From a virus, in IMG/VR virus record IMGVR_UViG_3300018080_008436, positions 58,998 to 122,997 of that record: 64,000 nt of DNA; one strand, given 5' to 3'. The notes beneath the pieces are model-generated. The model did no database searches. It was not told the DNA's origin and worked only from the letters and a program-made list of their open reading frames with translations. The position numbers and the translations under genes were made by a program. The stretch's first letter is position 1. Every line of letters starts with the position of its first letter. Positions 12,869-64,000 of this stretch are shown here, one piece after another.

Positions 12869-13669
12869 CTAGAACCTCACTAAACTCTTCAATTGCATCA
12901 GATCATCAAATTTCACATTGATACTGATGGAGAAAAGTCTTTTAAGAAGTCCTTCTTTAAAACGCACCGTTGCAATCTTGGGTTTGGGATTGGCAACGTG
13001 ATGATCTATGATCTGATCAGGATTCTTGAAATCGTCAACCAAACCTTTTTTCATTGCCTGCTTCCCAGAAAAGACCTTTGCGCTAACGATCTCTTCTTTA
13101 TTTTTCTCCATCTTTTTATTTGAACGTGCATTATACACCATTTCAACAAATTCTTCGTGACAATCTTCTAACAAAGCCTGGACAAGCATTTCATCTTTTG
13201 GCTCCAACGGTTTGAACGGACTAACAAACCCTTTGTTCTCACCAGCAGTGAACTCTCGGTATTCAATTTTATGATTGTCGATAAAGCGATCAAAGCCAAA
13301 ATTACTCATAATAACTCCAATGCTTCCAATAAGAGAAGAACGATGCGCATAGATCTTATCGCAAGCAGAAGCAATCATATATGCCCCTGAAGCGCAGACA
13401 TCACGACAATGGGCGACAATAGTACAATTAAGATCCTCTTTCAATTTGAGGATGGAATCATGAATCATTGAAGAACCAACAGGAGATCCACCACCTGAAT
13501 TGATATCAAGAATAATGAGCTTGAGGGCCGATTTATCAATTGATTTGAAGGTTCTGGCAAACTTCTCAGGATTGATCCCTTCTGCGGTCTTCTTGATTTC
13601 ACTTGCAGAAATAAATCCGTTTAACGGAACGATGACGACTTCTGGGGCTTCAGCTTTGAACATATCCAC
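12869..13669 (-). CDS. S49-family (SppA-like) serine peptidase
   Basis: LDINSGGGS and VCASGAYMIASACDKIYA are typical of the signal-peptide-peptidase / ClpP-fold S49 family. Confidence 0.7.
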   Translation of the reverse strand: MDMFKAEAPEVVIVPLNGFISASEIKKTAEGINPEKFARTFKSIDKSALKLIILDINSGGGSPVGSSMIHDSILKLKEDLNCTIVAHCRDVCASGAYMIASACDKIYAHRSSLIGSIGVIMSNFGFDRFIDNHKIEYREFTAGENKGFVSPFKPLEPKDEMLVQALLEDCHEEFVEMVYNARSNKKMEKNKEEIVSAKVFSGKQAMKKGLVDDFKNPDQIIDHHVANPKPKIATVRFKEGLLKRLFSISINVKFDDLMQLKSLVRF

Positions 13670-14465
13670 GCTCCTTCTTAATACTGTTTATAAATACTCT
13701 CATCTTGCGAAGTGATGCTTTCTCTATCTGCCTTATCCTTTCTCTTGTTAAACCATGCTCTACACTTAACTGCTCTAAAGTAGACTTCTTATCACTCATG
13801 AAACGTTTCTCAATGATTTTTCTCTCTCGATCATTTAACCTATCAAGTGCTTCATAAGCAATCTTCTTCATCTCTTTGTCGAAGACTTTCTTCCTTGCTT
13901 CCTCTTCAACAAAGATCGTTTCATACAAATCAATACTCGGATCTTGTGGCGCATCAAGAGATCGCATATTGTTAACAGGTTTGAATTGAGCGCGAAGAAG
14001 CTTATCTAAGCACCCTTCCTCATTAAGCATCGCCTCTTTATTGCGCTGTCTTCTCCTAATCTCATTATATGGAAGTCTCACAGTACGGGATGACTTGTCC
14101 ATGAATCCCATCACAGCGAACTTGACTGCTGTATTGAGGTAGCTCTGGAACTGAGTCTTCCCTTCGATATCGTACTTGATAATACACCTTAACACTGCCA
14201 GATAACATTCGTTCAGACAATCCATAAAAGATGAATTAGTGCTGTCAAGATGTTTTCTAACCAAGAGTACAACGAGCCTCAGATGTGAAAGAATAATTTT
14301 ATCCCTTGCTTCTAGAGCTTCGGGAGTCCAGGTCTTCTTATCTTTGTCATATCCTTTTTGCGCAATCACAACAAGTCTTCTGACTTCATCTTTATGAAGA
14401 GGATCACACTCTGATCGTTTGATATCTCTGTAATAAATATTGTCTAAGTTTACAGGTGTTGACAT
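13650..14465 (-). CDS. sigma-70 family RNA polymerase sigma factor
   Basis: Region 2 (LRLVVLLVRKH...YLNTAVKFAV) and region 4 HTH (LEQLSVEHGLTRERIRQIEKASLRKMR) are both present. Confidence 0.75.
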   Translation of the reverse strand: MSTPVNLDNIYYRDIKRSECDPLHKDEVRRLVVIAQKGYDKDKKTWTPEALEARDKIILSHLRLVVLLVRKHLDSTNSSFMDCLNECYLAVLRCIIKYDIEGKTQFQSYLNTAVKFAVMGFMDKSSRTVRLPYNEIRRRQRNKEAMLNEEGCLDKLLRAQFKPVNNMRSLDAPQDPSIDLYETIFVEEEARKKVFDKEMKKIAYEALDRLNDRERKIIEKRFMSDKKSTLEQLSVEHGLTRERIRQIEKASLRKMRVFINSIKKERGYVQS

Positions 14466-14473
14466 AGTTTCAC

Positions 14474-15322
14474 CTAGCTTCTGTCCTCGCCCTTCTCTCT
14501 TTGAATGAATCGTTTCATTTTTGCAAGGGCATCTCTTTCAATCTGTCTCACTCGTTCGCCAGACATATTGATTTCGTTTGCAATTCCTCTCAGAGTGTTG
14601 TCAACGTCTTCTTCTTTATTAAGAAACCGTCTCTCGATGATAAGCCTCTCTTTATCTTTAAGATGGCTCATGGCCTCAATAGCTATCTCTCGCATCTCAT
14701 GATCAAAAAGGATACGAGATGGATCTATCGGCATTGGTATGTCTCTAAAAGGCGAATTATGCATCTTAGAGCCATCATCGAAATCAAAGTCAATTGACCG
14801 AACATGACTGACAGGGTCGAAGTCTCCTTTTATTAATCTATCTAACGCATTAGGCGAACCGTAAATGTCATCTTCCACTTGTTGTCTTCGCATTGACTCA
14901 GCGATAGGAAGCTTTACCGAAGTCCCATGCTCTCGTATAAATCTCCAAACATGACGACGAATTGCAACCTGGGCATAAGTTGTAAAGTGAGTTGATGCAT
15001 TCACATCATATCTTGCAATACATTTTAATATCGCATAATGACATTCATTGATGCAGTCAAGGAAAAGAGGGTGCGGACTGCTGATGACCTTGTGAATGAT
15101 ATAAGGCACCAATCTGATGTTCGCTTTAACAACTTTGTTCTTAGCCTCGACTGACTCTTGCGTTTCCCATTTTTTAGTTTCAGGGTTGTAACCCGACTGA
15201 GCAACTTTGACTAGCTCTTTGATCTCTTCATTGCTGATCGGGTCATATTCTGGTTTCTGAATTTCCTTAAAGTACTGAGCTTGAGCACCTGACGATATAA
15301 CAATCCCGTCTGCGTTCTTCAA
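14474..15322 (-). CDS. sigma-70 family RNA polymerase sigma factor (paralogue)
   Basis: Region 2 (IRLVPYIIHKV...YAQVAIRRHV) and region 4 (LRGIANEINMSGERVRQIERDALAKMKR) are present; it lies in tandem with the previous sigma gene. Confidence 0.75.
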   Translation of the reverse strand: MKNADGIVISSGAQAQYFKEIQKPEYDPISNEEIKELVKVAQSGYNPETKKWETQESVEAKNKVVKANIRLVPYIIHKVISSPHPLFLDCINECHYAILKCIARYDVNASTHFTTYAQVAIRRHVWRFIREHGTSVKLPIAESMRRQQVEDDIYGSPNALDRLIKGDFDPVSHVRSIDFDFDDGSKMHNSPFRDIPMPIDPSRILFDHEMREIAIEAMSHLKDKERLIIERRFLNKEEDVDNTLRGIANEINMSGERVRQIERDALAKMKRFIQREKGEDRS

Positions 15323-19815: not shown

Positions 19816-19902
19816 TGGAGCGGGTAACAGGATTCGAACCTGCGTAAACTATTCGCCTCGAACTTGGAAGGATCGCGCTCTACCTGACTGAGCTATACCC
19901 GC
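19816..19902 (-). tRNA. tRNA (D-arm GCTC-AGTCAGGTA-GAGC; ~15-nt variable region; anticodon loop possibly CUUCCAA)
   Basis: Acceptor GCGGGTA/TACCCGC, T-arm GCAGG-TTCGAAT-CCTGT, and an encoded CCA. Confidence 0.55.
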
Positions 19903-20928: not shown

Positions 20929-21017
20929 TGGTAGCGGAGGCAGGACTCGAACCTGCGAGGAATTTTACTTCCTTCTGGCTTATGAGACCAGCGAGTTACC
21001 AACTACTCTACTCCGCA
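20929..21017 (-). tRNA. type-II (long-variable-arm) tRNA with CAU anticodon
   Basis: Folds cleanly as TGCGGAG-TA-GAGT-AGTTGGTA-ACTC-G-CTGGT-CTCATAA-GCCAG-[AAGGAAGTAAAATTCCTC]-GCAGG-TTCGAGT-CCTGC-CTCCGCT-A-CCA. The discriminator is A73 and positions 1 and 72 are U and U. Confidence 0.6.
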
Positions 21018-25943: not shown

Positions 25944-28900
25944 TTAGCTTGTTTTGAAGATATTATACCAATCATGCTGATAAACGAGATCATCTTCGTC
26001 ATCTCCTGGCTGATAGCCTGGAGGACGAGGACCACCTGGATCGTCAATGACCCTTGGGACATATGTATCCTTTTGTGGAACTTTTTTAGCTTCTTCAATG
26101 TATTGGATTACTCTTTCATAAGCAATCCTTCCACTCTTAGTCTGTAGAACTCTTCCTTCGAAAAGTGCGTCAAGTTGTTTTATGATCTGAAGTTTGATTT
26201 CTGGGGATGGGGGATTCTTGCTGATGTTGTATGCTTTAAGAGCGGCCCTTCTGATTAATCGCTCATTCTTCTTCAACATAGGATATGAGTTCATGATTCT
26301 GGTTAGCTCTTTATAATCACCCCTTTCCAAAGCAGTCTCAGCGACTCCTACGGCTCTCTTAGACTCTCTTGATCTAAATTCCTCCACATGCTTCTCTGTT
26401 ACAATTGGTTTGCCGTAAAGATCTTGAATCTGTTTGATTATTGTATCATAATATGGATCACCTTTGTAGAACATACACATTGTGCTTAAGGTAACACATT
26501 TCTTATAAAATGCTGGATTTTTGGCAAGTCTTCCGCCATATAAATCATTAATACCTTTCATTTTGTCAAGAGGACTTTCTCCAGAATCAGAACCGTCTCT
26601 TATGTTGTTCCAGTTCAAGTATGTGCTTGTAGCATATGCTACAGCTTCTCCTAAAGAATCATCTGCGATTTCCTGAACCTTCTCTTTGATAAGCTTACCC
26701 CTGGTTCTCTTGTTCAGTTCCCCTATCTTTTCCCTATCACCTCTAGCAAATGCTGTCTGAGCATCTCTCTTTATACTTTGGTAAGTCTTCTCTGCAATAT
26801 CTTGGTAATATGGTTTAAGTGGAGTTCCGATCAATCTCTTGAAATCGTTGTAATACCCTTCTGTTTGATCCCAGCTAGTGTTCATGTCTGACAAAATCCT
26901 AGAAGCATGAGTAACTGAACGTTGAAGAAACCTTTCAGTATCAAAAAGATCACCTTTGAAGTTTTGGTTCAGAAGAATTAACTGATTATAGTTACTAGCA
27001 TCAAGGTGATTAATAGCTACTTCAGTAGCCTGTTGAATTGCTTGCTGATAAATTCGTTCATAATGCACCCCTCTAGAAAGTTCATTGTTTAATACCCTAT
27101 CAACCTGTTGGAAAAGATCTGGGTTATGAACCATCCATGTTGAACTCATCCTGATTACAGCTTCTTTGACTTCGTCTCTTGCACTTAACTCTGGGAATCT
27201 CTCCAAAATATCTCTAAATGCTGTTAGATCATTCTCTGCTAAATAGTTGATCACTTTATTTTCAGCAAGTCCTAGTGCTCCCTCATAAATAACATCAAAA
27301 TATTTCGGTTCGGATAACTTCTCATCAAAGAAATCATTTAAATTGTTAAAGGCCATTTGGTCTTCCACAAGCATTAATGAAGCTCTTTCAAGCATCATTT
27401 CAAATGCCTCTTCTTTGAACTCATCCAAATTCTCTTTAAGGTCAAAGTGAACTCTTATGTTATTAAATTTGTTGAAATTATTATCTTTAATTGCATCAAT
27501 ACAAGCTTCTGTAGCTACACCCTTAAATAAAGGCGCGGCCCCAGATTGATTAATGATTGCCTGAACATCATAAAGTAAAGTTTTTTGGGTGGCACTTTCT
27601 CTTTGATTCACCAGCCTCATATAAGCTTGGAAAGCTAAGTCTTGGACTTCTTTGTGTTTAACGGGGATTGATCCCATTTGGTTGTTCAATTTAGCAAAAT
27701 CAACCCTTTGTGTATTAAGGTAATCTTTTGCACCTTCTTCGATAATAGTTTCCAACTCTTTTTTAATGAGTTCGATGGATAACTGTTGTACCACTGGGTC
27801 TTTCTTTAAAAAAGAGTATCGGCCTAAATTAAACTCAACTTCATTTGGAGAAATAGATACTAATCTATCTCGACAAACTTTGTGAAATCTCGATGCTTGG
27901 ATTTCTTTGCGCATACCATCAATTTCTTTCTTGTGGTCTTTGGCTTCATTCAACGTCCATCTGACTTTCTTGACATCTTCTCTTCGTCTTGCCTCATCCT
28001 CTTCAGTCTCGCCTCTGGTTTTCCTCAAAGCTTGTTCTTGCTTTGCTGAATCTTGAATTTTTGCATTTATCTTAGCATCCATATTTTCAAGACCATTTAT
28101 ATAAGCATCTGCTTTGGCAGAATAGAACAAATTCTCAACTTTTGAAAGCTTTGTGATCTCCTTCCTATTTACCCACATTCGATTCTTTTCATTTCGAAGT
28201 GATTCAATTTTCTTCCTAACCTCTGCAACAAGTTTTTCTAAAGGTAAATTTAGTTTTATATTCGCTTTCTCTAAAGCTATCGTCAATTCAGATCTTCCGA
28301 GACCTTGCCTTACCTTCTTTTCAAAAAGTTCATCATCTATTTTAAAACCATATTGACTAAGAAGTTTTCCTTTATCTCCTTTATGCAAGTCAGCGAAGCA
28401 CTCATCCATGTTACTGACTGCTCCTTTGGAGAATTTATCAATTGTACTATTGTCTAAGTAATAGAAAGCATGCCCATTAGAAGTTATCTCTGGATCACTC
28501 ACCATATTAGTAATTTCTTCGATGTTTTTCCCAGATAGGTCTTTAACCCTTTCCTCGTCTTCACGAAGTTTTTTGAGGTTGTAGTGACCGGTCTTGTTCA
28601 TCTCAGAATTGATATGTGGATGTCTTTGACAGAGATTATATACTTTGTCAGCATACGGGACGATAGTGATATCCTTATTATTCAGCCCTCTAACTTCTTG
28701 TATTCGGCTACCGATGAACCTGATCGCCACTCTTGGGGCACCACCCTCTACATAGAACCAGAAATCTCCTTGGTAAGTATAATCTTTTGCGGTTCCAAGT
28801 CCACCTATGCACCATCCAGCACTATTAGTCAACATACTAATAATCTTGCCTCTGGCATCAGAAGTGGTTACATCCAGACCCCTAATTTGATTTCTAATAT

Positions 28901-29846
28901 CCTCTGGGTATTTTATTTTGGCACCGACATTTCTTCCACCAGGGATAACAACCCAATCATTCTTAAGCCCCTTAATATCTTCTTGAGAGACTTTATTAAG
29001 AGCATCTTCACCTTCGAGGTTCTTTTGTGTATTAAAATATGATGAAAATATTTGCTTATTACCCAGTGGCCTTTTGGAACTCTTCATCTCTTCATAGATA
29101 GGAGCAAGTTCTTCTTTCTTCGCCAAGGCTTCTTGTAAGTTTTCTTCAGCTTTTTTGATAACTACAGGTGCTTCATTTTTCTTTTTAAGTTGATTAACCT
29201 GATTGGTCAACTTAGACACTTGTTTGTTCAAGTTCTGGTAAACTGATGCTGTTTTTTCCTCCAAAACATAGATTCCACTTTCTATGTCTTCCTGCGTAAT
29301 TCCAAATTTTGCTAAGGTCTGAGTCTTAAGTCGATCACCAGCAAGTGCCTGCATATAGTTGTCAATCTTCGGAACGGACATCTCTTCATAAGATGCTTGC
29401 AAAACCTTATCTGTTGGTTCTGCGAGGGGACTGTTGGCAACAGAAACGGAAAGAATATAAAGGAAAGGATTGCTAAGTCTGTAAGTAAATTCTTTTGGTT
29501 GTTCGCCAAATAGAAGGTTCTCCCACTTAGGGATCTGCATCATGGCTTTAAGATAAACTCTTCTGTCTTGGTAAGATAACTCTTGCTTTTGAAGATCTTT
29601 GGCATCGAAGGTTAAAATCTTCTCAAAGTTAGCCTTGGATTTTTCTAAGAGTTCTTTAGCTTTTCCACTGACAATAAACTTGTCGATTTCTGCTCGTAAG
29701 CTTTTCTCATCATTGATGGCCTGCCAGTCAAGGTAGGCTCCACCTTTTCTATCTTCCAGGTTACAGATATTGATTAAGAGGGGATCAGTGGGATTTCCTG
29801 CACTTTTCAGCTTCTCTTCAACTTTTGCAATTTTAATGAATTTCAT
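25944..29846 (-). CDS. large hypothetical protein (1300 aa)
   Basis: The longest ORF in the window, with no recognisable catalytic motif and a coiled-coil segment around residues 200-250. It may be a virion or injected protein. Confidence 0.5.
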   Translation of the reverse strand: MKFIKIAKVEEKLKSAGNPTDPLLINICNLEDRKGGAYLDWQAINDEKSLRAEIDKFIVSGKAKELLEKSKANFEKILTFDAKDLQKQELSYQDRRVYLKAMMQIPKWENLLFGEQPKEFTYRLSNPFLYILSVSVANSPLAEPTDKVLQASYEEMSVPKIDNYMQALAGDRLKTQTLAKFGITQEDIESGIYVLEEKTASVYQNLNKQVSKLTNQVNQLKKKNEAPVVIKKAEENLQEALAKKEELAPIYEEMKSSKRPLGNKQIFSSYFNTQKNLEGEDALNKVSQEDIKGLKNDWVVIPGGRNVGAKIKYPEDIRNQIRGLDVTTSDARGKIISMLTNSAGWCIGGLGTAKDYTYQGDFWFYVEGGAPRVAIRFIGSRIQEVRGLNNKDITIVPYADKVYNLCQRHPHINSEMNKTGHYNLKKLREDEERVKDLSGKNIEEITNMVSDPEITSNGHAFYYLDNSTIDKFSKGAVSNMDECFADLHKGDKGKLLSQYGFKIDDELFEKKVRQGLGRSELTIALEKANIKLNLPLEKLVAEVRKKIESLRNEKNRMWVNRKEITKLSKVENLFYSAKADAYINGLENMDAKINAKIQDSAKQEQALRKTRGETEEDEARRREDVKKVRWTLNEAKDHKKEIDGMRKEIQASRFHKVCRDRLVSISPNEVEFNLGRYSFLKKDPVVQQLSIELIKKELETIIEEGAKDYLNTQRVDFAKLNNQMGSIPVKHKEVQDLAFQAYMRLVNQRESATQKTLLYDVQAIINQSGAAPLFKGVATEACIDAIKDNNFNKFNNIRVHFDLKENLDEFKEEAFEMMLERASLMLVEDQMAFNNLNDFFDEKLSEPKYFDVIYEGALGLAENKVINYLAENDLTAFRDILERFPELSARDEVKEAVIRMSSTWMVHNPDLFQQVDRVLNNELSRGVHYERIYQQAIQQATEVAINHLDASNYNQLILLNQNFKGDLFDTERFLQRSVTHASRILSDMNTSWDQTEGYYNDFKRLIGTPLKPYYQDIAEKTYQSIKRDAQTAFARGDREKIGELNKRTRGKLIKEKVQEIADDSLGEAVAYATSTYLNWNNIRDGSDSGESPLDKMKGINDLYGGRLAKNPAFYKKCVTLSTMCMFYKGDPYYDTIIKQIQDLYGKPIVTEKHVEEFRSRESKRAVGVAETALERGDYKELTRIMNSYPMLKKNERLIRRAALKAYNISKNPPSPEIKLQIIKQLDALFEGRVLQTKSGRIAYERVIQYIEEAKKVPQKDTYVPRVIDDPGGPRPPGYQPGDDEDDLVYQHDWYNIFKTS

Positions 29847-33138: not shown

Positions 33139-34212
33139 CTAGGCTTTATGGCCATTTTTTTCTTTAATAGGGTTGGCCTTCAAAGCTTCATAGTCAGCTT
33201 TATACATGATTTCAACGAGTTCATTGAACTTCACTTTCGGTTCCCATCCCAAAACTTTCTTTGCCTTGGAGTAATCTCCCAAAAGTAGATCCACTTCAGC
33301 AGGTCGATAATACCTTGGATCAATCTGAACTAGTGCATCTCCGCTCTTACTGAAACCAACTTCTTGCTGACCCTCGCCTTCCCATTTCAATGGCATCTCT
33401 GCCAAATCGAAAGCGATATCAACAAATTCCTTAATAGAATGTGTTTCATTTGTTGCTACGACATAATCATCTGGCTTATCCTGTTGCAACATCAACCACA
33501 TTGCTTCAACAAAATCTGGTGCATATCCCCAATCTCTTCTAGAATACATATTGCCAAGATACAAACAATCTTGCATTCCAAGCTTAATAGATGCCACGGC
33601 CCTGGTGATCTTTCTTGTAACGAAAGTTTCTCCTCTTCTAGGAGATTCATGGTTAAAAAGTATCCCGTTGCTTCCATAAATCCCATAGGACTCTCTGTAG
33701 TTCATTGTAATTGAGAACCCAAACTGTTTTGCAACACCATATGGGGATCTTGGATGAAACCTTGTCAACTCAGTTTGTGGACTCTCATAAGGAATACCGA
33801 ATAACTCTGACGAAGACGCTTGATAGAACTTACACTCAGGGCAAAAGGATCTGATCGCTTCCAGTAATCTCAAAACTCCCAATCCCGTTACATCCGCTGT
33901 GTATTCTGGCTTGTCAAATGACACCCTTACATGACTCATTGCCGCAAGGTTATAACACTCGGTTGGCCTTACCTTTTGAACGATTCTATTCAAACTGTTC
34001 GCATCTGATAAATCACCATAATGAAGATGTAAATTTACATGTCTGTCATGAGGGTCTTGATAAATGTGATCGATTCTCTCTGTGTTGAATGAACTGGATC
34101 TTCTTATGACTCCATGCACTTCATATCCCTTATTCAAAAGTAGTTCTGCTAGATATGAACCATCTTGTCCTGTTATCCCTGTTACCAGTGCGATTTTCTT
34201 TGATTTAGCCAT
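33139..34212 (-). CDS. gmd: GDP-mannose 4,6-dehydratase
   Basis: [46 protein letters not shown]...[14 protein letters not shown] is a textbook GMD signature. Confidence 0.9.
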
Positions 34213-34287: not shown

Positions 34288-34752
34288 ATGAGTGTAACGG
34301 GAGGCTTTGGAATGAAAAAGAAAAAGAACAAAAAAAGTAAATTCTGGTGCATCCTCGGCAATTCATTACTCTATGCCGTAATAGTTATCACATCTATTAT
34401 CGTTTATGACAAAGTGAGGTTCGGGGAAGCTGAAGAACCAGTTGCTGAAGAAACAGCACCAACAATTGAAGAAGCAACAGATCATACAATTGATGAGTTA
34501 GATCTAAAGAAACTTGATCTGAAAGCACTAGTAACCAAAGAACCTGAACCACTTCGCATGAGATATTCTCTTTGCCCTGCTGGATCGACAGTATTCAAAA
34601 TGAACCATGAAACTGGAGAAGTGTACTTCTTCTCTGGAGGGATGTTCCTTCCAATACAGACAATCTCTCATGCCCAGATCTATGGAATCATCCCTCAGTT
34701 AGAGAAGGAATTGAAAGAGAAGCAGGAAGCACTCAAACCTAAGGCTGAGTAA
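34288..34752 (+). CDS. hypothetical membrane-anchored protein
   Basis: Plus-strand ORF filling the gap between gmd and thyX, with an N-terminal transmembrane helix (FWCILGNSLLYAVIVITSIIVY). Confidence 0.4.
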   Translation: MSVTGGFGMKKKKNKKSKFWCILGNSLLYAVIVITSIIVYDKVRFGEAEEPVAEETAPTIEEATDHTIDELDLKKLDLKALVTKEPEPLRMRYSLCPAGSTVFKMNHETGEVYFFSGGMFLPIQTISHAQIYGIIPQLEKELKEKQEALKPKAE

Positions 34753-35515
34753 ACTTACCATCAGGCCCCCTGACGTTGTAATATCTCTTCCCGTCAGGTT
34801 TGGTGCCATAAGTTGCTTCCTCAATAGCCTCAAAACGCTCTATGATACCCCACTTGGCTTCATAGACAGTTGGAACAATGGGTTTGATCAACTGCTTTAA
34901 AGCCTCGGCATATTGAACCATTTCCCACTGAGCGCCCTCATGACTTCTCAGATTGATGAAATGGATCAAGTTGTGCAAATCAACTGTTGCGTAAAATGTA
35001 ACCATCATGTTCTGAGGCAACACTCCCCTGGCTTGCTCTCTGGCAACCCCTTCGTCAAGAAGATTCTGATAAAGCTTGAGGCACCCAATATTGTGCTTGG
35101 CCATAATGCTTTTTATATGCTCTTCGTGATCTTCTCCCTCTCCAAATCCATCTACTGATGCCTGTCTATTGATCTTCGCTTGTCCTCGGATTTTTGGGGG
35201 AACATAGAACTGCAAATCAAATTCTGTGTATCTTCTAGAGATTTCATTGTAAGACCAAGTTCTGTGTCTATGCCACTGTCCTCTAATGAACAAAGGGCAA
35301 TGTACCAAGAAAGTGAACTCGACATGTTCAAGAGGACTCGTATGCTGATTGTTAATTAGATACCGAATCAGCACTCTGTCTTTTTCTTCGATAGCGTCAA
35401 CCCTTTTCCCGAATGAAACCCTTGCGGCATTCACAATCCTGGTCTCGTCCCCCATAAAATCAATCAAACGAACGTACCCCTGTCCACCCAATACTTCAAC
35501 AACTTTAGAATCCAT
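34739..35515 (-). CDS. thyX: flavin-dependent thymidylate synthase ThyX
   Basis: ThyX signature RHRX7S (QWHRHRTWSYNEISRRY), plus SPLEH. Confidence 0.85.
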   Translation of the reverse strand: MDSKVVEVLGGQGYVRLIDFMGDETRIVNAARVSFGKRVDAIEEKDRVLIRYLINNQHTSPLEHVEFTFLVHCPLFIRGQWHRHRTWSYNEISRRYTEFDLQFYVPPKIRGQAKINRQASVDGFGEGEDHEEHIKSIMAKHNIGCLKLYQNLLDEGVAREQARGVLPQNMMVTFYATVDLHNLIHFINLRSHEGAQWEMVQYAEALKQLIKPIVPTVYEAKWGIIERFEAIEEATYGTKPDGKRYYNVRGPDGKFTQP

Positions 35516-39365: not shown

Positions 39366-40391
39366 CTAGAACGTACCATCTATAATGTTTACAAAATGCT
39401 TTCTAATAAAAGAAGCACATGCGTTATTGATCGTTTTGTTAACTCGTTTTTCTTCACTCTTTTCGAGTTTCTCAAAAATAGTGGATTCATCTTTCAGCAT
39501 ATCTTTTCGAACATCCTGAGCAAAGGCCCCCATGAGTTTTCCGAATTCTTTCTGACTGATCTCTCCAATATGAGACAGAACATTTCTTAGTCTGTTTTCT
39601 GTAATGTATTCGTCAGCAACTTGAGTTACTCTTTGGGCCTCTTCAGAAACCACTACAGGTTTTCTTTCTTTAGGAACTCTTTTCCTTTCTGTGAACTTTT
39701 CATTCTTTGATTTAAGAATGACTCTTGATCCACAAGGGTCACAAATAGAAACCAAAGGCTTGAGGACATTCCCCTCGCAGATGTTACCCTCAATCTCTGG
39801 AAGACCATAATGCTTATAAGTCGGATCTGGATAATCATTAGGATAGTCCAAGCACTCTTCAAATGTTCCAACATGCAAAGCTTTGGCGTAAAGGGTGAAT
39901 CCAGCTTCATCCATTACTTTAACAAAATTATCATAGCTCATAGGAGTGCTCTTCTCTCCCCTAATGTAGATATCAAATGGAAAGAAATCAACGTCTGGAC
40001 AGTACCAAACCTTGTTCTGAACCATCTTTACGCCTTGAACAGGCTCTACATCTGGATGAGGATATCTTCCACCAAACAGCTCCCCATAAATCTGAACAGT
40101 AGTGTCCTCATCCAGATTAAACATGTTAAGGATAATCTCCCTAGCCAAATTGACCCTTACTAGGTAACGATTTCTCACCTTCTGGAAGTTGAAAAAGTTT
40201 TCGTCTTCTGACAGCCAGCTTGTTCTTTTTGAGCACTTGACTCCATTACTATCAGCATACATTGAAAAATTAGCACCATGGATCTTAGTTGTAACGATCC
40301 AGGGATTTGCGGTATAACCACGGGTTACGTAGCTATCAATGGTTTTCTTTCTGTCAGAGTTGTCAATCTCGGTGTACTTCCTGAAATTCAT
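39366..40391 (-). CDS. RNA ligase, T4 Rnl2 family
   Basis: MNFRKYTEIDNS...WIVTTKIHGANFSM carries the KxHG nucleotidyltransferase motif I and is collinear with T4 Rnl2 (MFKKYSSLENH...VAREKIHGTNFSL). Confidence 0.85.
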   Translation of the reverse strand: MNFRKYTEIDNSDRKKTIDSYVTRGYTANPWIVTTKIHGANFSMYADSNGVKCSKRTSWLSEDENFFNFQKVRNRYLVRVNLAREIILNMFNLDEDTTVQIYGELFGGRYPHPDVEPVQGVKMVQNKVWYCPDVDFFPFDIYIRGEKSTPMSYDNFVKVMDEAGFTLYAKALHVGTFEECLDYPNDYPDPTYKHYGLPEIEGNICEGNVLKPLVSICDPCGSRVILKSKNEKFTERKRVPKERKPVVVSEEAQRVTQVADEYITENRLRNVLSHIGEISQKEFGKLMGAFAQDVRKDMLKDESTIFEKLEKSEEKRVNKTINNACASFIRKHFVNIIDGTF

Positions 40392-41143: not shown

Positions 41144-41478
41144 TTTCTAGAATTCACAACCTCTTCTTTCATATGTTGAAACACTGACTCAATATCTGAG
41201 GAAACAAACACCTTAACAGTTTCGAATAGGTTGGAACCGAAGTAAACAGTTAAAGGAGACTCTAGGACAGATAGAACATAACGTTCATCTGAGTCACCTT
41301 CATCAACTAAGATGGCAAACCTTGGTATTGGGATACCATGTTGATTCTCCATTACGGTTAAATCAACCATATCACCATCGTCATCTACCGTAAAGGTGAA
41401 TTTTGTTTCTAACTCTTCTGAAAGCAGATGGAGTTCCTCTGTAATCATCCTTCCCCTAACCCCAGTTATTGTGCCCAA
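41128..41478 (-). CDS. hypothetical protein
   Basis: 116-aa ORF. Confidence 0.35.
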
Positions 41479-42403
41479 GTTCTTCCTTAAAGTATTTGAT
41501 CGTATGCTTCAAACCCTCTTCTAAAGGAACCTCAGGACCCCAATCCAATTTCTTTTTTGCCAAATCAATCACAGGTTTCCTTCTAGTTGGGTCATCCTTA
41601 GGAAGTTCCTTAAACACAATCTTAGAATCTGATCCTGTCAACTCTATGATCTTCTCAGCTAATTCAAGAATGGAGTTTTCTGTAGGATTTCCTAGATTGA
41701 CTGGCCCTGTAAAGTCCTGACTGTTCATCATCTTTATCATACCATCAATTAAATCACTTACATAACAGAAACTTCTTGTTTGAGATCCGTACCCATATAT
41801 TGTTATGTCTTCACCTTTCAAAGCTTGAACAATGAAGTTTGAAACAACCCTCCCATCCCCAGGACACATTCTAGGTCCATAAGTGTTGAAGATTCTGATC
41901 ACTTTAATATCTGAGTTGTATTGTCTGTAATAGTCAAAGAAAAGGGTTTCGGCACATCTCTTCCCAATGTCATAACAGCTTCTAGGCCCTATTGGGTTAA
42001 CACAACCCTTGTAAGACTCTGGTTGGGGATGTACTTCAGGATCACCATATACCTCAGAAGTTGATGCCTGAAGTATGGGGATCTTGAGTCTCTTGGCGAT
42101 CCCTAGCATATTGATGGCACCCATCACTGATGTCTTAGTTGTTTGAACTGGATCAAACTGATAGTGAATAGGAGATGCTGGACAGGCCAAGTTGTAAATC
42201 TGATCAACTTCTACATAAAGAGGGAATGTGATGTCATGTCTGATGACCTCGAAGTTTCTCATGTATTGAAAAGGGTAGATGTTTTTCTTCCTACCAGTGT
42301 AGAAATTATCAACACAAATTACTTCGTTGCCTTCTTGCAACAGTCTCTCGCAAAGATGGGAACCCAGGAACCCTGCTCCCCCTGTAACCAAAATTCTTTT
42401 CAT
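41456..42403 (-). CDS. UDP-glucuronate decarboxylase (UDP-xylose synthase)
   Basis: [34 protein letters not shown]...[11 protein letters not shown]...[19 protein letters not shown] is a near-consensus UXS/ArnA-decarboxylase signature. Confidence 0.85.
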
Positions 42404-50800: not shown

Positions 50801-50878
50801 TGGTCGGGGTGAGACGATTCGAACGTCCGACTTCTTGCTCCCAAAGCAAGCGCTCTAACCAGGCTGAGCTACACCCCG
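50801..50878 (-). tRNA. tRNA-Pro (UGG)
   Basis: The minus-strand sequence CGGGGTG-TA-GCTC-AGCCTGGTTA-GAGC-G-CTTGC-TTTGGGA-GCAAG-AAGTC-GGACG-TTCGAAT-CGTCT-CACCCCG-A-CCA forms a canonical cloverleaf. Confidence 0.85.
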
Positions 50879-52283: not shown

Positions 52284-52745
52284 CTAACACCTTTCAAACT
52301 AATTAGACAGACAACTATCATCCCAGTAGCCAAAACCATGGCCGAATTAGAAGAAATCATTGTTGCAATCAAAAGCATGATCGTTACTCATCCAGGATCA
52401 ACATCACTTGAGTCTTCTGGGAAGTTAATGTCAGACCAATGAGTGATTCTGACATGTCCCAAGAAATCTAATCCCTCTCCATCAAACTCACCACCATCCC
52501 CTTCTTTAATATTGAATCTGGTGATACAACAAACTTTTTTGTTAATAATACCAATTATTCTTCTGTAACCGCAGGCCAGGACTTTTCGTCTATCATCTGG
52601 CACTCTTACTTCTCTGCTGATCCAGTCAATCATTTTTCTTCACTCTTTTGTAGTAATTAGAAAGCCTGGGGTTCTTGTCGCAAATAGATTATGCATCTCT
52701 TTGCAATGAGGGTATTCACCCTGCCACCTTTGCGAGTCTTTTTCA

Positions 52746-57963: not shown

Positions 57964-58437
57964 TTAGCCCCTGGTTACTTTGACTAGCTTACCGTCTTTT
58001 AGCTCTTTGTAGTCATCTTTGAAGTAGTTCAGGTATGTTGTGGGTTTCTTATGAACCGACCACCTTTTGATAAACTTCATAGCATCACTTCTTCTATAGA
58101 AGAAAAGGGTGAGTTCCAATGAAGAACCAGTCGATCTGTACTCATCATTCCCCATGCACCATCCCTTTTCCCCCTTACACGAACTTGATTGATTGTCTTT
58201 GACGTTTTCATTCAGCCAATCAATGACCTCTTGCTTCAGGAATGGAACATTTTTGATTCTGAGAAAGACATCTTCAACTTCCATTCTCTTCATTTCCACG
58301 AGATTGTGCCAGTCTTCTTGTTCCGTTTTGTAGTCTTGGCGACTAAACTTGTCTATGCCAACCATGTAGGAGCAATCAAAAACTTCTCCGTCCCAATGAG
58401 ATTTGGAACACCAACAATGGTTTTGATGAAAGTGCAT
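57964..58437 (-). CDS. hypothetical protein
   Basis: 157-aa ORF immediately downstream of the PARP-like gene. Confidence 0.4.
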   Translation of the reverse strand: MHFHQNHCWCSKSHWDGEVFDCSYMVGIDKFSRQDYKTEQEDWHNLVEMKRMEVEDVFLRIKNVPFLKQEVIDWLNENVKDNQSSSCKGEKGWCMGNDEYRSTGSSLELTLFFYRRSDAMKFIKRWSVHKKPTTYLNYFKDDYKELKDGKLVKVTRG

Positions 58438-58467
58438 TTTATCTACCTTTTTCAGACTTGCCGTTGA

Positions 58468-59793
58468 TTATTTTCCGTTAGGTGAAAACTCAACCAAGTA
58501 CTTCAGGTTAACTTGGGACGTTCTGTAAACGATCATTTCGTTGTTCATGACCCCAGACTTGTTCGCCTTAGCGAAAGTGGAATCAGTATTACGAACAGGG
58601 AAACCGCTTCCGTAACGAGCAGGGACATGATAATTGCCCATTGCCATATCCAAAAGGAACATGAAGCAATTGTTGTCAGCCTTTCCGCCCCAATAGCCAT
58701 AAGCGTAGTTTAACGCCTTCGTAGACTGATCTGAGGCGTAGACCCCATTCCCGAACATTCGGCCCGTACAATGGCTTGAAGAGGCTGGAGGAATGACCAG
58801 ACCGCCCTTCAGGATCGAAAGAAGGTTGGATGCTCTTGTACCATGCCATAACTCCCAGATGTTGTCCATCTTCGCCCCATCCAATTCGAAAGCCTGACGG
58901 ACAGTATTGATGTCAACCTTGTAAATGGTTTTGACATCCAGGTGATAACAGGCATGTCTTGACTGACGGGTTTTCCCATACATCTTTTTAATATGGGCCA
59001 GAGTCTTGGAATCTTCTACCAGATCCAGTTGAACATCGAAGACCTGTTCTTCAGGAAGTTTCACAGTCTTCTTGCGTCCAGGCTGAGTGGTTGCAGTAAC
59101 CAAAGATGCCTGTAAAGCATCAACAATTGACTTCTGTTTCTGGACCTTGGCAAGATCAGACCAGAAATTATTCACATCCAGTCGCTTTCTTCCAATGTTC
59201 TGAGGGACCAACATAAGGTAGTCATTGGTCAAGTCGCCTAATTTTGCAGTGTAACGACCTTTGGCAACCATATCACCAATCTTGACCAGGATGTCATTGG
59301 CATCATCAATATTACCTTGAGTGACGATACCCATGGGCGTTGAAAACAGCCCTGTAGTATCATTGAAGGTAATCTGACCGCCAGTAGCAGATGAGATCTG
59401 ATGGGCGTTGACTTTCGTCAGATAGGTGATCAACTTTGCAACGTTGGGGTTGTTATATTTGATTTGTTTCTTGGCAACGCTTTCGAGGTTGGCCTTCGCA
59501 ACGGTTTTCTGAGCGGTCTGAGTCGTTGTTCCACCTTCAACGATCTCAATCTCTCGATAAGCGATCTCACCATTTCGACCAGAACGAAGTTTAGATCTAA
59601 TCTTGCTTTCAGCAAACTTTCGGCCTGCCGCTTCACTACCTTTCTGGTAGGTTCGGCTTTGTCCTGAATCTCCTACGCGACCATAGCGGACGGTTACTTC
59701 TCCATCGTCATAGATTTCAACATTCCAGAATTTGTTGTTGTTCTTTTTGTGATCGCTTTTGATGAAATGGCGTTTTTCGATTAATGTACCCAT
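58468..59793 (-). CDS. WGR-domain poly(ADP-ribose) polymerase (PARP)-like ADP-ribosyltransferase
   Basis: N-terminal WGR domain (KFWNVEIYDDGEVTVRYGRVG). C-terminal PARP catalytic H-Y-E triad region: LWHGTRASNLLSILKGGLVIPP...GRMFGNGVYASDQSTKALNYA...NNEMIVYRTSQVNLKYLVEF. The last segment is near-identical in pattern to the PARP1 C-terminus [24 protein letters not shown]. Confidence 0.8.
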   Translation of the reverse strand: MGTLIEKRHFIKSDHKKNNNKFWNVEIYDDGEVTVRYGRVGDSGQSRTYQKGSEAAGRKFAESKIRSKLRSGRNGEIAYREIEIVEGGTTTQTAQKTVAKANLESVAKKQIKYNNPNVAKLITYLTKVNAHQISSATGGQITFNDTTGLFSTPMGIVTQGNIDDANDILVKIGDMVAKGRYTAKLGDLTNDYLMLVPQNIGRKRLDVNNFWSDLAKVQKQKSIVDALQASLVTATTQPGRKKTVKLPEEQVFDVQLDLVEDSKTLAHIKKMYGKTRQSRHACYHLDVKTIYKVDINTVRQAFELDGAKMDNIWELWHGTRASNLLSILKGGLVIPPASSSHCTGRMFGNGVYASDQSTKALNYAYGYWGGKADNNCFMFLLDMAMGNYHVPARYGSGFPVRNTDSTFAKANKSGVMNNEMIVYRTSQVNLKYLVEFSPNGK

Positions 59794-59804
59794 TTTTTAG
59801 TCTC

Positions 59805-59845
59805 CTGTATTGCGGAGCAGAACTCCGCTGTTTTTAGTTTTTAAG
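59805..59845. terminator. GC hairpin GCGGAGCAGAACTCCGC followed by T-runs on the plus strand
   Basis: The inverted repeat GCGGAG-N5-CTCCGC is followed by TGTTTTTAGTTTTT, between the PARP-like gene and the upstream gene. Confidence 0.35.
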
Positions 59846-59905
59846 TCTTTAGCGTATACAATAGTTCATCTAGGTCTATTGTCAACCTGTACTAAGAAAA
59901 AAATC

Positions 59906-60634
59906 TTACTTAGTATTTCTCTTCTTCAGACCTCTTTCATATATGAAGGCAAGTCTGGCGCTTCTAAGGCTATTCTCGCAAATTCTTTGGACATCTGTAA
60001 TCAAATTGCTGGCCAAAGTATCCAAGCTGATGTCACTTTCACTTCCTTCCTGCAAAATCTTAATGATTTCAAAAGCGTCATCAGATAAAGAAACCATGTT
60101 TCCCTCTGTTACTTCTAACTTGACATTCTCCACTTCAGATTCAACCGTTTTTGACTCAGGGTCATCAACAGGTGCTTGATCTTGTTTAGGGACTATCGTT
60201 CCTTCTCGAATTCTTCTTGCGATATGTTTCTCAAATCGATAGATGAAACTCTTGACCGAGTTCTTTATCTCTTCAGTACAACTTCTCATTGAGCAAAGAG
60301 GCAGAAGAAAGTCACGAACAAAATCTCCAGAAACATAATGCTTCCCATCAATTTCGATACAATGTCTGTTAATTTTTGCACGATAATGCTCTCCATCTGT
60401 GAGCCATTCTCCCCTCCTTTCAAGGGAACTTGCATAATGACTAAGGCGACCACCATCCTTATAGGTTAAGACACTAGAGATGTCTTTCAATTTATAGAAA
60501 TTCTTAACCTTAGATCCCGTTAATCTAGCACACAAAATGCTTCGCCCGTTGATTTCTTCTTCTATGAGAGTGCAGTTTTCAGAGTCTTGGGATGAGAAAG
60601 ATCTGAGTTTGATTTGATTTACTTTTGTAGACAT
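59906..60634 (-). CDS. hypothetical protein (possible KilA-N-like N-terminal domain)
   Basis: 242-aa ORF. The N-terminal ~100 aa loosely resemble KilA-N/APSES-type DNA-binding domains. This is a weak call. Confidence 0.3.
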   Translation of the reverse strand: MSTKVNQIKLRSFSSQDSENCTLIEEEINGRSILCARLTGSKVKNFYKLKDISSVLTYKDGGRLSHYASSLERRGEWLTDGEHYRAKINRHCIEIDGKHYVSGDFVRDFLLPLCSMRSCTEEIKNSVKSFIYRFEKHIARRIREGTIVPKQDQAPVDDPESKTVESEVENVKLEVTEGNMVSLSDDAFEIIKILQEGSESDISLDTLASNLITDVQRICENSLRSARLAFIYERGLKKRNTK

Positions 60635-60743
60635 TTTTTAGTTTCTCCTTTTTTAGTTTTTAGTTTGAAACATGGACATATTATACAGGGGGCACGGGAA
60701 AAACTTCAGTTCACAGAAAAATTTATAATTGCTGTGCCTAATC

Positions 60744-61601
60744 TTAGAAGATATCCTCCATGACCTCAATGGAGTCGTCTTTTTCGTCCACTATTGGTTC
60801 AACCTCTTCTGCGGAACCAATTCCTAATGTTTCTTGGATCTCAGATTGAGTCAACGGTTCTCTATCCTTAAGATATGAACCACATGGAGCACCACCTTCG
60901 AAGTAAAAACCTGAATAGAACAGTTCGCTGAATGTTAGTGTAATAAGTTGAGATGTCTTCTTAACTGATCTCAAAATCAAACCATCAAACTTTCCACTTT
61001 CAGTATCGAGATTCAACCCCTGAACGGTATATGTCTCGCCTTTACTGTCAAAGATTTTTGTGCTTATAGCACCGTTATCTTTCATTACATCTTTGTAGCT
61101 CATTGGTTCAAAACATTTGTCGGTAATCAAAAGACAGGCTTGTTGTATACTTTTCACTTCAATATCTTCATCAGTTGCGATATCAACTAACCGTATTTTG
61201 TTCGCCTCAATAATAATTGAACACTCAACTGGAATCCAAAGCTCAATATTGTCAATGGACTCTTGAGAAAGGGTAAGATTGGGGGCATTAGAAATCTGAG
61301 CTATAGAGACTTTGTAATCAAGTTGCTCCGCTTTCTGCAAACACAATGAGCATGTCGCAACAGAAGGATCTTCCGTATATCTTGATGGAGTGGTGTAACT
61401 TCCATTATAAGAAGAGTATTGCGTTGTATTAACAAATCCTCCGCAAAACTTATGCTTATACGAAGGGACTCCTGGGAAAATCTCTTTTAACTCTTCCCAC
61501 CTCGCTTTAGTTCTAATTGAGAGGTGAATATCTCCTGTCGCGTTTTTGTTGGTAACATGAGGATCGAAACGTACACCTTGTCTGGATACAGAGCTAGACA
61601 T
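60744..61601 (-). CDS. hypothetical protein
   Basis: 285-aa ORF. Confidence 0.4.
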   Translation of the reverse strand: MSSSVSRQGVRFDPHVTNKNATGDIHLSIRTKARWEELKEIFPGVPSYKHKFCGGFVNTTQYSSYNGSYTTPSRYTEDPSVATCSLCLQKAEQLDYKVSIAQISNAPNLTLSQESIDNIELWIPVECSIIIEANKIRLVDIATDEDIEVKSIQQACLLITDKCFEPMSYKDVMKDNGAISTKIFDSKGETYTVQGLNLDTESGKFDGLILRSVKKTSQLITLTFSELFYSGFYFEGGAPCGSYLKDREPLTQSEIQETLGIGSAEEVEPIVDEKDDSIEVMEDIF

Positions 61602-61641
61602 TGTATTGCTCCTTTATTAATATTCGTTGTAATAATTAGTG

Positions 61642-62277
61642 TTAGTCTTTCTTAACGAACTTCTTGATTTTCTTTTCCATTGGAAGTTCGACACTACCAG
61701 TAGTCATAAACCTTAGTCCCAAGTTTATCATAGCCAGGACAGTTGCGGGGAGATACATTGATGTTTGGGGGTCATCAGAAACAAAAACCCCTAGAATACA
61801 CCCAGCAGTGGCCAAGACATTTGAAATAACAGTCTTGGATTTATACCAAGGTTTCTTTCCTTCAGTGACCTCCTTGTCTGGATTATTGGCAAAGATCTCT
61901 TGCACATCTTCAACAATCTCAGGAAGGCTTTCAATAACATCTTCTGCGACTTCCATGAGATCCAAGCCATCTTCCGACTCTTCAGGTTTTATCTCAGGTT
62001 CTATTTCAGGTTCGGGTTCTGGTTCCTCTTGGAGGTTTTCACTCTCAATGGGACTCGTACTGGGACTCTCTTGTGGAACAGTTTCCTCAACTGGTCGATC
62101 AAAATACGGATTAACATCTTCTTTTTCCTCTTCTACAACGGTGCTTTGATCGATAAGGACTAAATCACCAGCTTTGAGTTTCTCTCTGAACTCATCAATG
62201 TCATCCAAAGAAGCAGGACCGACATTTTTTACCTCAAGCTGAACAGGTACATTATTAATTTTTACATCCAAATACAT
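61642..62277 (-). CDS. acidic protein with C-terminal membrane anchor
   Basis: A central PEPEPEIEPEIKPE acidic tract and a C-terminal transmembrane helix (VISNVLATAGCILGVFV). It is the last gene before the CRISPR array. Confidence 0.4.
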   Translation of the reverse strand: MYLDVKINNVPVQLEVKNVGPASLDDIDEFREKLKAGDLVLIDQSTVVEEEKEDVNPYFDRPVEETVPQESPSTSPIESENLQEEPEPEPEIEPEIKPEESEDGLDLMEVAEDVIESLPEIVEDVQEIFANNPDKEVTEGKKPWYKSKTVISNVLATAGCILGVFVSDDPQTSMYLPATVLAMINLGLRFMTTGSVELPMEKKIKKFVKKD

Positions 62278-62416
62278 GTCGCATTCGATTTAGGAAATAC
62301 CTAAATCTGCACCTATTGTTTAAGTTGCTATATATTTATTCAAGTTAAAAATCACTTTTTCCTTTTCCGTAGCTCGTCTAGGTTTATTATATCAGTCAGG
62401 TTGTCTGTCAGCGTCT

Positions 62417-64000
62417 GTCACATTTGGCTCAAGTTTTTCTTGAGCCTATACCCGTATCCAGCAGACGTTTGACGGGCAGGTCGAGTTGGTCACAATTAGC
62501 TCAAGTTTTTCTTGAGCCTATACCATATCAGAGAGCAAAAAAGAAGTTTGCTCAAGCCCTGTCACATTTGGCTCAAGTTTTTCTTGAGCCTGTACCTAAG
62601 AGAGCTTATCTGTTCCAACGATTCTTGTATAGTGTCACAATTAGCTCAAGTTTTTCTTGAGCCTGTACCACAGGATTCTAAGCCTCGTCACAATTAGCTC
62701 AAGTTTTTCTTGAGCCTGTACCTTGTTGAAACCGTCAGAAGCGGCGGGTTGGGAGAGAGTCACATTTAGCTCAAGTTTTTCTTGAGCCTGTACTAAGTCT
62801 GGGAACAGGGCAAAGAGCATGTTCTACACTCGTCACATTTGGCTCAAGTTTTTCTTGAGCCTGTACCATTTCTCTGCCTTGAATCGCTTCAGGTTGTCAC
62901 AATTAGCTCAAGTTTTTCTTGAGCCTGTACCGAAAGAAGCTCTGGTAATTCAGATAATCCAGGTCTTGTCACAACTGGCTCAAGTTTTTCTTGAGCCTGT
63001 ACCGAATTCTGGGTTCAGGGAGACCCACGTCGGATCATGTCACAACTGGCTCAAGTTTTTCTTGAGCCTGTACCATTTCTCTGCCTTGAATCGCTTCAAG
63101 TTGTCACAATTAGCTCAAGTTTTTCTTGAGCCTGTACCTTAGAAACCTTGTTACTACTGATGAGGTCACATTTAGCTCAAGTTTTTCTTGAGCCTGTACC
63201 AGTTGATGGCCGCTAACCTGTGGAGCCTTGGCCTGCGTCACATTTGGCTCAAGTTTTTCTTGAACCTGTACCATTCGAAATCCATTCCGTCAACCAGATT
63301 GCTCAGGGGTTACAATTAGCTCAAGTTTTTCTTGAGCCTGTACCTTACAGTCTAAAAACGCTTCCAGAATTGGCGGCAGGTCACATTTGGCTCAAGTTTT
63401 TCTTGAGCCTGTACCTCAATGAAAACGATTGGGTATTGCAGAGTCTCACTTTGTCACAACTGGCTCAAGTTTTTCTTGAGCCTGTACCGTGCAAACGCAT
63501 TAGTTTGAGCAGGTCTTGCCAGCAGTCACAACTGGCTCAAGTTTTTCTTGAGCCTGTACCAGATTTCATAACGGGGTTGATGTCACAATTAGCTCAAGTT
63601 TTTCTTGAGCCTGTACCAGGAGTAAGGATCAGTTCTGTTACACCTACCTTCTTGTCACAATTAGCTCAAGTTTTTCTTGAGCCTGTACCAGAAGTAATCG
63701 AAATGATTGACTGGAGAGCATTCCTCGTCACAATTAGCTCAAGTTTTTCTTGAGCCTGTACCACCTGCATTGCGCTCGACTGCAAGTTGTCAGGCGTCAC
63801 AATTAGCTCAAGTTTTTCTTGAGCCTGTACCATTCCCTGTCGGAGGCTGAGAAGTGGGATTTGATCATGTCACATTTGGCTCAAGTTTTTCTTGAGCCTG
63901 TACCAGAATACGTGAGGGGAGAACGATTTGCAGATATCCATGTCACATTTGGCTCAAGTTTTTCTTGAGCCTGTACCATTCCCTGTCGGAGGCTGAGAAG
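62417..64000. CRISPR. CRISPR array of at least 22 repeats, running off the window edge
   Basis: The 36-bp repeat GTCACA[AT][TC]T[AG]GCTCAAGTTTTTCTTGAGCCTGTACC has an internal 8-bp palindrome GGCTCAAG/CTTGAGCC. Repeats start at 62417, 62489, 62561, 62634, 62687, 62759, 62832, 62896, 62968, 63039, 63103, 63165, 63237, 63309, 63380 and onward. Spacers are 17-37 bp, mostly 35-37. The two repeats nearest 62417 carry CCTATACC instead of CCTGTACC. An AT-rich flank lies at 62280-62416. Confidence 0.9.

Follow-up and report, generated by a model that had tools for sequence, protein, structure and literature searches.

Is an irregular phage CRISPR array, with several repeat variants, duplicated spacers and a spacer of only 17 bp, a relic in neutral decay, or is it a locus still in use? 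The question is raised by the end of a 64,000-nt stretch of viral DNA (positions 58,998 to 122,997 of IMG/VR record IMGVR_UViG_3300018080_008436, hereafter the window), which an initial annotation, made from the letters alone, had read as an array without acquisition machinery that drifts neutrally. We consider it likely that an apparently functional array, rearranged by recombination, has its promoter-distal part in this segment, and that it encodes CRISPR RNAs (crRNAs) with a constrained fold and belongs to a Cas12-Cas3 locus. Taken by themselves, the peculiarities (polymorphic repeats, duplicated spacers and a deletion) are array evolution of familiar kinds.

An ungapped scan and a repeat search place 23 repeats of 36 nt, none with an insertion or deletion, at 62417-63977 of the window (62417-64000, minus strand), where the window end truncates the array and leaves 22 complete spacers and a 23rd that is cut. 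The 23 repeats are the promoter-distal part of a 26-repeat array that is complete in L001, taken from a 523,871-bp contig (ENA ERZ27256796), and is thus carried by a phage of approximately 524 kb; the whole array comprises 25 spacers, 23 of them unique and most of them 35-37 nt long. Regularly spaced 36-nt direct repeats and spacers of mostly similar length identify the element as a CRISPR array, and cas genes and a leader lie next to it, upstream and on the same strand, so that the locus runs from a Cas12-like effector (1119 aa) through Cas3 (820 aa) and a 216-nt leader into the 26 repeats.

The evidence on whether this array is decaying comes first from the repeats. The scan of the 23 window repeats bears out the four variants that had been listed at plus-strand positions 7-10, with ATTA in ten repeats, TTTG in seven, ACTG in four and TTTA in two. 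Further single-base changes affect five more repeats at four positions; the repeat reading gtTaca, already reported, lies at 63309, and ccTAtacc at 62417 and 62489, gtacT at 62759 and ttgaAcc at 63237 go beyond the initial annotation. Read in the crRNA sense, the repeat has the sequence GGUACAGGCUCAAGAAAAACUUGAGC[C/U]A[A/G][A/U]UGUGAC, and its variable tetranucleotide is made up of position 27, the partner of G7 in a G-C or G-U pair, and of a bulge (A28, R29, W30). All four variants have the same predicted fold whether the closing pair is G-U or G-C, with an outer helix of 4 bp (3-6/31-34), an inner helix of 8 bp (7-14/20-27) and a predicted 3-nt bulge at 28-30, on the 3' side between the two helices. 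The minimum free energy of the repeat fold ranges from -11.9 to -13.6 kcal/mol (z-scores -3.6 to -4.9), and no shuffled sequence folds equally well. Three of the remaining changes fall in helices, namely C5>U (ccTAtacc on the plus strand) and C9>U, both of which turn C-G into a U-G wobble, and G34>A, which turns U-G into U-A; G1>A and one loop base in contig L002 fall at unpaired sites.

Over ten distinct repeats, pairing is kept in 120 of 120 cells in the crRNA sense versus 103 of 120 on the opposite strand, where the failures are A-C or C-A mismatches. Within the array four pairs vary, each on one side only, and the preservation of pairing by these four substitutions is, alone, modest evidence for selection on the fold. 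Two divergent Cas12-Cas3 loci, L022 and L046, have repeats (GUGUAGCAUAUGGGGAAAACAUAUGCAGAUACAACA and AUUACAACCUACUGAUGAUACAGUAGGUGAUUGUAAC, respectively) that differ in sequence but again fold into two helices, with a short bulge or internal loop on the 3' side. Compensatory changes are seen in 8 of the 11 consensus pairs, and the bulge reads AAA, AAU, AGU, AGA or UGA across the loci. Taken together, the pair-keeping changes, the compensatory pairs and the variability of the bulge across loci argue against neutral drift. In type V systems, for example those of Cas12a and CasPhi, the crRNA handle is a repeat-derived hairpin 5' of the guide with a constrained stem; the handle predicted here differs in having two helices and a 3-nt bulge located 7-9 nt upstream of the guide. 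The variable tetranucleotide is probably the part of the handle that this Cas12 family leaves unconstrained; the inner helix's closing pair and the bulge, where the repeats vary, would be sites at which the handle tolerates change. Polymorphism confined to such tolerant positions would imply selection on the fold.

The same changes bear on the direction of transcription, as their pattern fits only a crRNA sense on the minus strand. The cas genes share the orientation of the window minus strand, and the leader contains a promoter-like site (TTGACA-16-TATAGT, 11 of 12 consensus positions, L001:7875-7902), with no comparable site pointing into the array from the trailer side. Five uniform repeats stand at the leader side, and the two degenerate ones at the 62417 end. 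Because these four lines of evidence (cas orientation, leader promoter-like site, uniform leader-end repeats and repeat-change pattern) agree, the array is predicted to be transcribed on the minus strand. The earlier suggestion that the variable bases would form a crRNA 5' tag if transcription proceeded on this strand holds as regards the strand and the position, the tetranucleotide being located within the repeat-derived 5' handle; the notion of a tag, however, was borrowed from class 1 systems, and the effector here is Cas12-like.

The cas gene pair lies just past the window end, outside the view of the initial annotation (L001:2050-7868, equivalent to 10001-15819 of contig L007). The 1119-aa protein matches the Pfam TNB domain PF07282 (Cas12f1-like) with 31 bits against a cutoff of 26.3 and, weakly, several Cas12 models of PADLOC; in a comparison with 25 relatives, two RuvC residues, D618 and E904, do not vary at all, and D985 hardly does. 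A single large protein with a split RuvC D/E/D triad and a TNB domain is the hallmark of a type V effector, which this protein is accordingly predicted to be. A profile of the effector family, compared with solved structures, retrieved Cas12j19/Cas12-2/Cas12X (1e-64), Cas12X2 (2e-41), Cas12h1 (7e-25) and Cas12m (1e-6), which suggests that its nearest solved structures are Cas12X/Cas12j19 and Cas12h1, and not Cas12m. The 820-aa protein matches the PADLOC Cas3c model over residues 13-814 (5e-65) and cas3_HD with 50.8 bits against a cutoff of 43.45, and is most readily taken as a full Cas3, with HD nuclease and SF2 helicase, of a type I-C-like kind. No genes for Cascade subunits (Cas5, Cas7, Cas8) were found in the Pfam annotations of the 10 kb upstream of the effector, or by PADLOC among the 95 open reading frames (ORFs) of the window, and the four ORFs nearest upstream of the effector have no Cas match in Pfam or PADLOC. 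Nor does any anti-repeat above 11-14 nt occur in the 16 kb upstream or in the window; the lack of a longer one is consistent with an effector that uses crRNA only.

How, then, does decay fare as an explanation? On this account the array is an orphan that serves no effector and gathers random mutations, deletions and duplications. The absence of acquisition machinery, mentioned in the initial annotation, is supported for the stretches covered, since none of the 95 ORFs of the window (62 kb on one side) encodes Cas1, Cas2 or Cas4 and no such gene was found within 10 kb upstream of the effector; the irregular spacer lengths and the failure to find a spacer target point in the same direction. Against drift stand the apparently intact Cas12, with its conserved triad, and Cas3 directly upstream, the promoter-like leader, a shortest spacer that still has 17 nt, and repeats that are free of indels, whose changes at paired positions all preserve the pair in the crRNA sense and whose variation is focused on the closing pair and on the bulge, itself variable among the related loci. 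We therefore regard neutral decay as improbable and favor an apparently functional, rearranged array.

The initial annotation had also allowed that the variants and duplications could be artefacts of assembling a repetitive region, and had proposed a comparison with other isolates of the phage. Contigs from several assemblies, those of JGI being of other samples, were retrieved through a look-up of the 211-aa protein encoded at 61642-62277 (minus strand). Contig L001 shows 0 mismatches to the reverse complement of the window over 12,359 nt, from its position 8278, and all the variants, short spacers and duplicates recur base for base in this contig of an ENA k141 assembly, in the 26-repeat layout. 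They also recur in JGI 3300017991, in two contigs that overlap across the stretch in which the first duplicated spacer (A) recurs around another (A-B-A, see below), and partial copies of the same layout are present in two more assemblies, ENA ERZ27256783 and JGI 3300017963. The flanking sequences of the contigs agree to 100%, which shows that these represent one phage population and not separate lineages, and because the population is single the agreement across assemblies is uninformative on long-term stability. The contigs differ in two respects, the loop change in one repeat of L002 and a 207-bp absence in L005 (JGI 3300017963). With the layout thus reproduced, random misassembly is excluded. 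That misassembly of the repeats or a mixture of strains made the variants, duplicates and short spacers, as the 207-bp difference and a contig break of JGI 3300017991 inside A-B-A might suggest, is scarcely credible; besides the agreement of the assemblies, the longest stretch that the two copies of the second duplicated spacer have in common (about 50 nt by our own count) is shorter than the k of 141 implied by the contig name, and the short spacers are each flanked by complete repeats.

What the assemblies reproduce is an array with two duplicated spacers. Duplicate A is a 37-nt spacer (ATGATCAAATCC...) whose trailer-side copy occupies 63832-63868 (minus strand) and whose leader-side copy begins at 63978, one base off the positions first reported for both; the window end leaves only its last 23 nt in crRNA sense (63978-64000, minus strand), and full identity over 37 of 37 positions (E=1e-18) is seen in contigs L001 and L008. 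Its arrangement, A-B-A, may reflect either re-acquisition or duplication followed by loss. Duplicate B is a 28-nt spacer with a trailer-side copy at 62868-62895 (minus strand; AACCTGAAGCG... in crRNA sense) and a leader-side copy at 63075-63102 (minus strand; AACTTGAAGCG...). The single mismatch noted initially lies at guide position 4 (27 of 28 identical), with 24 identical bases after it (E=5e-11). Because the two copies share their atypical length and the variant of the upstream repeat, it is likelier that one unit was copied and then altered by a single point change than that the two were acquired independently. No other related spacer pair emerged from a comparison within the array. L005 lacks exactly 207 bp, or three repeat-spacer units, between the two 28-nt copies (62896-63102 or, equally, 62868-63074, minus strand), a spacing that also appears as a repeat family in the repeat search of the window, and this form is the expected product of misalignment of the B copies. 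The initial attribution of the duplicates to recombination or duplication within the array is thus upheld by the shared features of the B copies and by the 207-bp absence.

The order of the repeat variants points the same way. Since each new repeat would copy the leader-side repeat, acquisition at the leader would be expected to lay down blocks of one variant. Such blocks do occur next to the leader, with five CAAA, four TAAT and two CAGT in crRNA sense; farther along the variants alternate, giving 16 runs in total, with no significant clustering along the array (P=0.17) and with the same variant on both flanks of only 10 of the 25 spacers. The two trailer-end repeats (62417-62452 and 62489-62524, with the spacer between them; 62417-62524, minus strand) have C5>U in common and differ in the tetranucleotide. 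A history of ordered copying would demand about 26 recurrent substitutions at three sites that return to the same four haplotypes (counted by hand from the repeat order), and recombination or slippage between repeats accounts for the order far more simply. Ordered acquisition at the leader end cannot by itself account for the variant order, which, together with the two duplicated units and a deletion polymorphism that has a duplicated spacer at its ends, indicates that homologous recombination or replication slippage has rearranged the array. Most crossovers would probably lie within the 26 invariant 5' bases of the repeat, and each spacer would in this way stay with the variable bases of its upstream repeat. 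Bacterial arrays (PMC11472070, PMC4524480) likewise contain duplicated repeat-spacer units in mid-array and deletions that end in duplicated spacers. In a survey of such arrays about 3% of spacers were candidates for duplication, and it was suggested that duplicated spacers may be lost faster, since they are able to misalign (PMC11472070). The phage array differs from them in that 2 of its 25 spacers are duplicates, in its four interleaved repeat haplotypes and in the short length of a quarter of its spacers.

The short spacers raise a separate issue. All complete spacers of the window measure 35-37 nt except for six (17, 21, 26, 28, 28 and 33 nt); the 17-bp spacer reported initially is real, and the several shorter than usual that accompanied it correspond to those of 26, 28 and 28 nt, with two more of 21 and 33 nt. 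Besides the B copies, they are found on the minus strand at 62670-62686 (17 nt, after a TAAT repeat, and present also in L001, L002, L004 and L005), 63139-63164 (26 nt, after TAAA), 63561-63581 (21 nt, after TAAT) and 63763-63795 (33 nt, after TAAT). All six follow a repeat of the U27 type (TAAT or TAAA in crRNA sense), that is 6 of the 12 spacers after such repeats versus 0 of the 13 that come after the C27 type (P=0.005 in a Fisher test, and 0.014 when duplicates are collapsed, an association based on five or six spacers), with no link to the downstream repeat. The association fits spacers that remain tied to the 3' end of the upstream repeat, as they would if crossovers fell in the 26 invariant 5' bases; the cause of the shortness is left unexplained by it. 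The array of L046 is regular, with uniform repeats and spacers of 32-34 nt, from which it follows that irregularity is not a trait of the family. Other type V effectors reportedly need only the first 17-20 bases of the guide, and the shortest spacer still has 17 nt. Most likely, the short spacers would have been truncated or imprecisely acquired, and they would be tolerated if those first bases suffice.

The same association has been read in two other ways. In one, the array would be a patchwork in which each spacer came in joined to the 3' portion of the repeat upstream of it, either from other arrays, of related phages or of hosts, by recombination in the conserved hairpin or through host Cas1-Cas2 acting in trans, and in this reading the tetranucleotide would be a barcode of origin, with the U27 type marking a source whose spacer ruler is sloppy. 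The dependence of short spacers on the upstream and not the downstream repeat, the trailer-end repeats that are alike in their 5' change and unlike in their 3' variant, and the lack of adaptation genes nearby all speak for such import, as does the finding that almost all CRISPR systems of huge phages are without Cas1, Cas2 and Cas4 (Al-Shayeb et al. 2020, PMC7162821). Against it stand the small number of spacers involved and the repeat core itself, for which no other array was found in IMG/VR, in the JGI metagenomes (the same phage aside) or in 185,579 species genomes; we judge both import and the barcode unlikely. In the other reading, the guides would form two classes, those of U27 type and short length binding their target without cutting or Cas3 recruitment, for example to silence a gene, and those of C27 type and full length destroying it. 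Beyond the association itself, the mini-array of L022, with its 23-nt spacer, would suit this division of labor. Yet half of the U27-type units have full-length spacers, the related L046 array is uniform, the two closing pairs give an identical predicted fold and no target was found, which makes two classes very improbable. More broadly, that an array without its own integrase was built by recombinational capture of modules, or that U27-type handles with short guides are a separate functional class for the Cas12-Cas3 pair, seems to us improbable; if captured modules, each a spacer with the 3' part of a repeat, were the source, the variable tetranucleotide would record the source array of each guide.

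Several points weigh against the view of a functional array, rearranged by recombination. Transcription and the crRNA ends are predictions only. Within the array, the evidence for selection on the fold comes from only four substitution events, and the probability that all four would keep the pair is 0.001 if all substitutions are equally frequent and 0.09 if only transitions are allowed. The contigs derive from a near-clonal population, possibly from related samples, and a systematic misassembly could still be hidden in them at A-B-A, the duplicate within which the assembly of JGI 3300017991 broke. The model leaves the link between U27 and short spacers unexplained. Finally, no protospacer was found for any spacer searched: the whole array gave chance-level matches only against INPHARED in distant mode (E=0.5), four spacers gave none against IMG/VR, and within the phage itself there is a single 15-nt match. 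The latter, at 52621-52635 of the window, is exact to positions 12-26 of the spacer GAGGAATGCTCTCCAGTCAATCATTTCGATTACTTCT, with about 0.07 such matches expected by chance (a rough estimate), and because it lies outside the seed it is probably a chance occurrence. The G+C content of the spacers (46%, versus 40.5% for the phage, P=0.0045) is consistent with a foreign origin.

Is the locus unique? The effector is rare, with a single full-length relative (31% identity) and some 120 distant relatives among 1.84 billion representative proteins. The Cas12-Cas3 pair recurs in L022, the locus of the 31%-identity relative, in L046, whose Cas12 shows 24% identity along most of the protein (E=2e-37), and in the more distant L048, all three in phage-like contexts; searches of IMG/VR gave no relatives of the Cas12 and no copy of the L022 repeat. 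In L022 a single repeat stands upstream of cas12 (124-159) and, downstream of cas3, there is a two-repeat mini-array with one 23-nt spacer (6368-6462). Neither the solo repeat nor the mini-array spacer has a complementary target in the 10.6-kb contig, and the idea that the solo repeat is a self-regulatory guide was rejected, there being no complementary site of at least 12 nt. The repeat core of the phage array likewise led to no array in IMG/VR, to the same phage and 12 single hairpin matches in the JGI metagenomes, and to 22 single hairpin matches in the 185,579 species genomes. The twelve JGI matches (GCTCAAGN5CTTGAGCN4TGTRAC, contigs L009-L021), none of them an array, include several that come from one and the same bog or peat series, and their number compares with a chance expectation of a handful. 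No CRISPR repeat family of Rfam matched the repeat at gathering or E<=1 thresholds, and a near-identity search of INPHARED with window positions 58000-64000 returned no match.

Two published types of system come closest. With those of huge phages (PMC7162821) the locus has in common an array beside a type V effector in a phage, the lack of Cas1, Cas2 and Cas4 in the vicinity, a number of tRNA genes and a genome of very large size. It is unlike them in pairing a 1119-aa Cas12 with a full Cas3 instead of a CasPhi of approximately 750 aa, and in a repeat without an Rfam family or IMG/VR contig match. For a candidate Cas12-Cas3 "class 1-2 hybrid" (Altae-Tran et al. 2023, PMC10910872), the effector has been described as a Cas12m, a protein not known to cleave DNA, and no other candidate system of this kind was found in the literature searched. 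Here, too, a Cas12 gene lies beside a type I-C-like Cas3 and a CRISPR array, but by profile the effector is not Cas12m, and its RuvC triad is conserved. A Cas12X/Cas12h-like effector together with Cas3 in a megaphage would thus be a rare variant.

The remainder of the window is in keeping with a large phage genome. An intergenic trailer (62278-62416, minus strand) separates the last repeat from the 211-aa gene, and all real genes of the window are on the minus strand. There are five tRNA genes, four in a cluster and a fifth, for Pro, at 50801-50878; the cluster includes a tRNA-Gly(tcc) of 87 nt (19816-19902) and a tRNA-Met of 89 nt (20929-21017, minus strand), which are much longer than usual and may contain an intron or insertion. 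At 58468-59793 (minus strand), 2.6 kb from the array, a 441-aa protein combines WGR, PARP regulatory and PARP catalytic domains (E=1e-27), which makes a full PARP-type ADP-ribosyltransferase, an unusual enzyme for a phage. The largest ORF of the window (1300 aa, 25944-29846, minus strand) has no Pfam or PADLOC match. Two tandem genes for sigma-70-like proteins (271 and 282 aa) lie at 13650-15322 (minus strand) and a third upstream of the cas genes (L007:5440-6270), and the phage seems equipped with a sigma-factor set of its own. For the 95 ORFs of the window, PADLOC also reported MzaA (two ORFs, best E=9.5e-13), PDC-S07 (2.5e-13) and PtuB-like HNH models. Auxiliary genes at 6206-7117, 33139-34212, 41456-42403, 34739-35515 and 39366-40391 (minus strand) comprise three of GDP-mannose dehydratase/epimerase type, a ThyX thymidylate synthase and a T4 Rnl2-like RNA ligase, a typical load of a huge phage.

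For the biology of such phages, the locus suggests that a 26-repeat array with no integrase nearby may be maintained and reshuffled, and not decaying. Its repeat variants indicate the transcribed strand without recourse to expression data, and at the same time they map the positions of the crRNA handle in which the Cas12 family probably tolerates change. The association of a Cas12 that has a conserved triad with a predicted full Cas3 is found in at least three phage-like loci, and in a fourth that is more distant, for a pairing that the searched literature mentions once and for a different Cas12 lineage.

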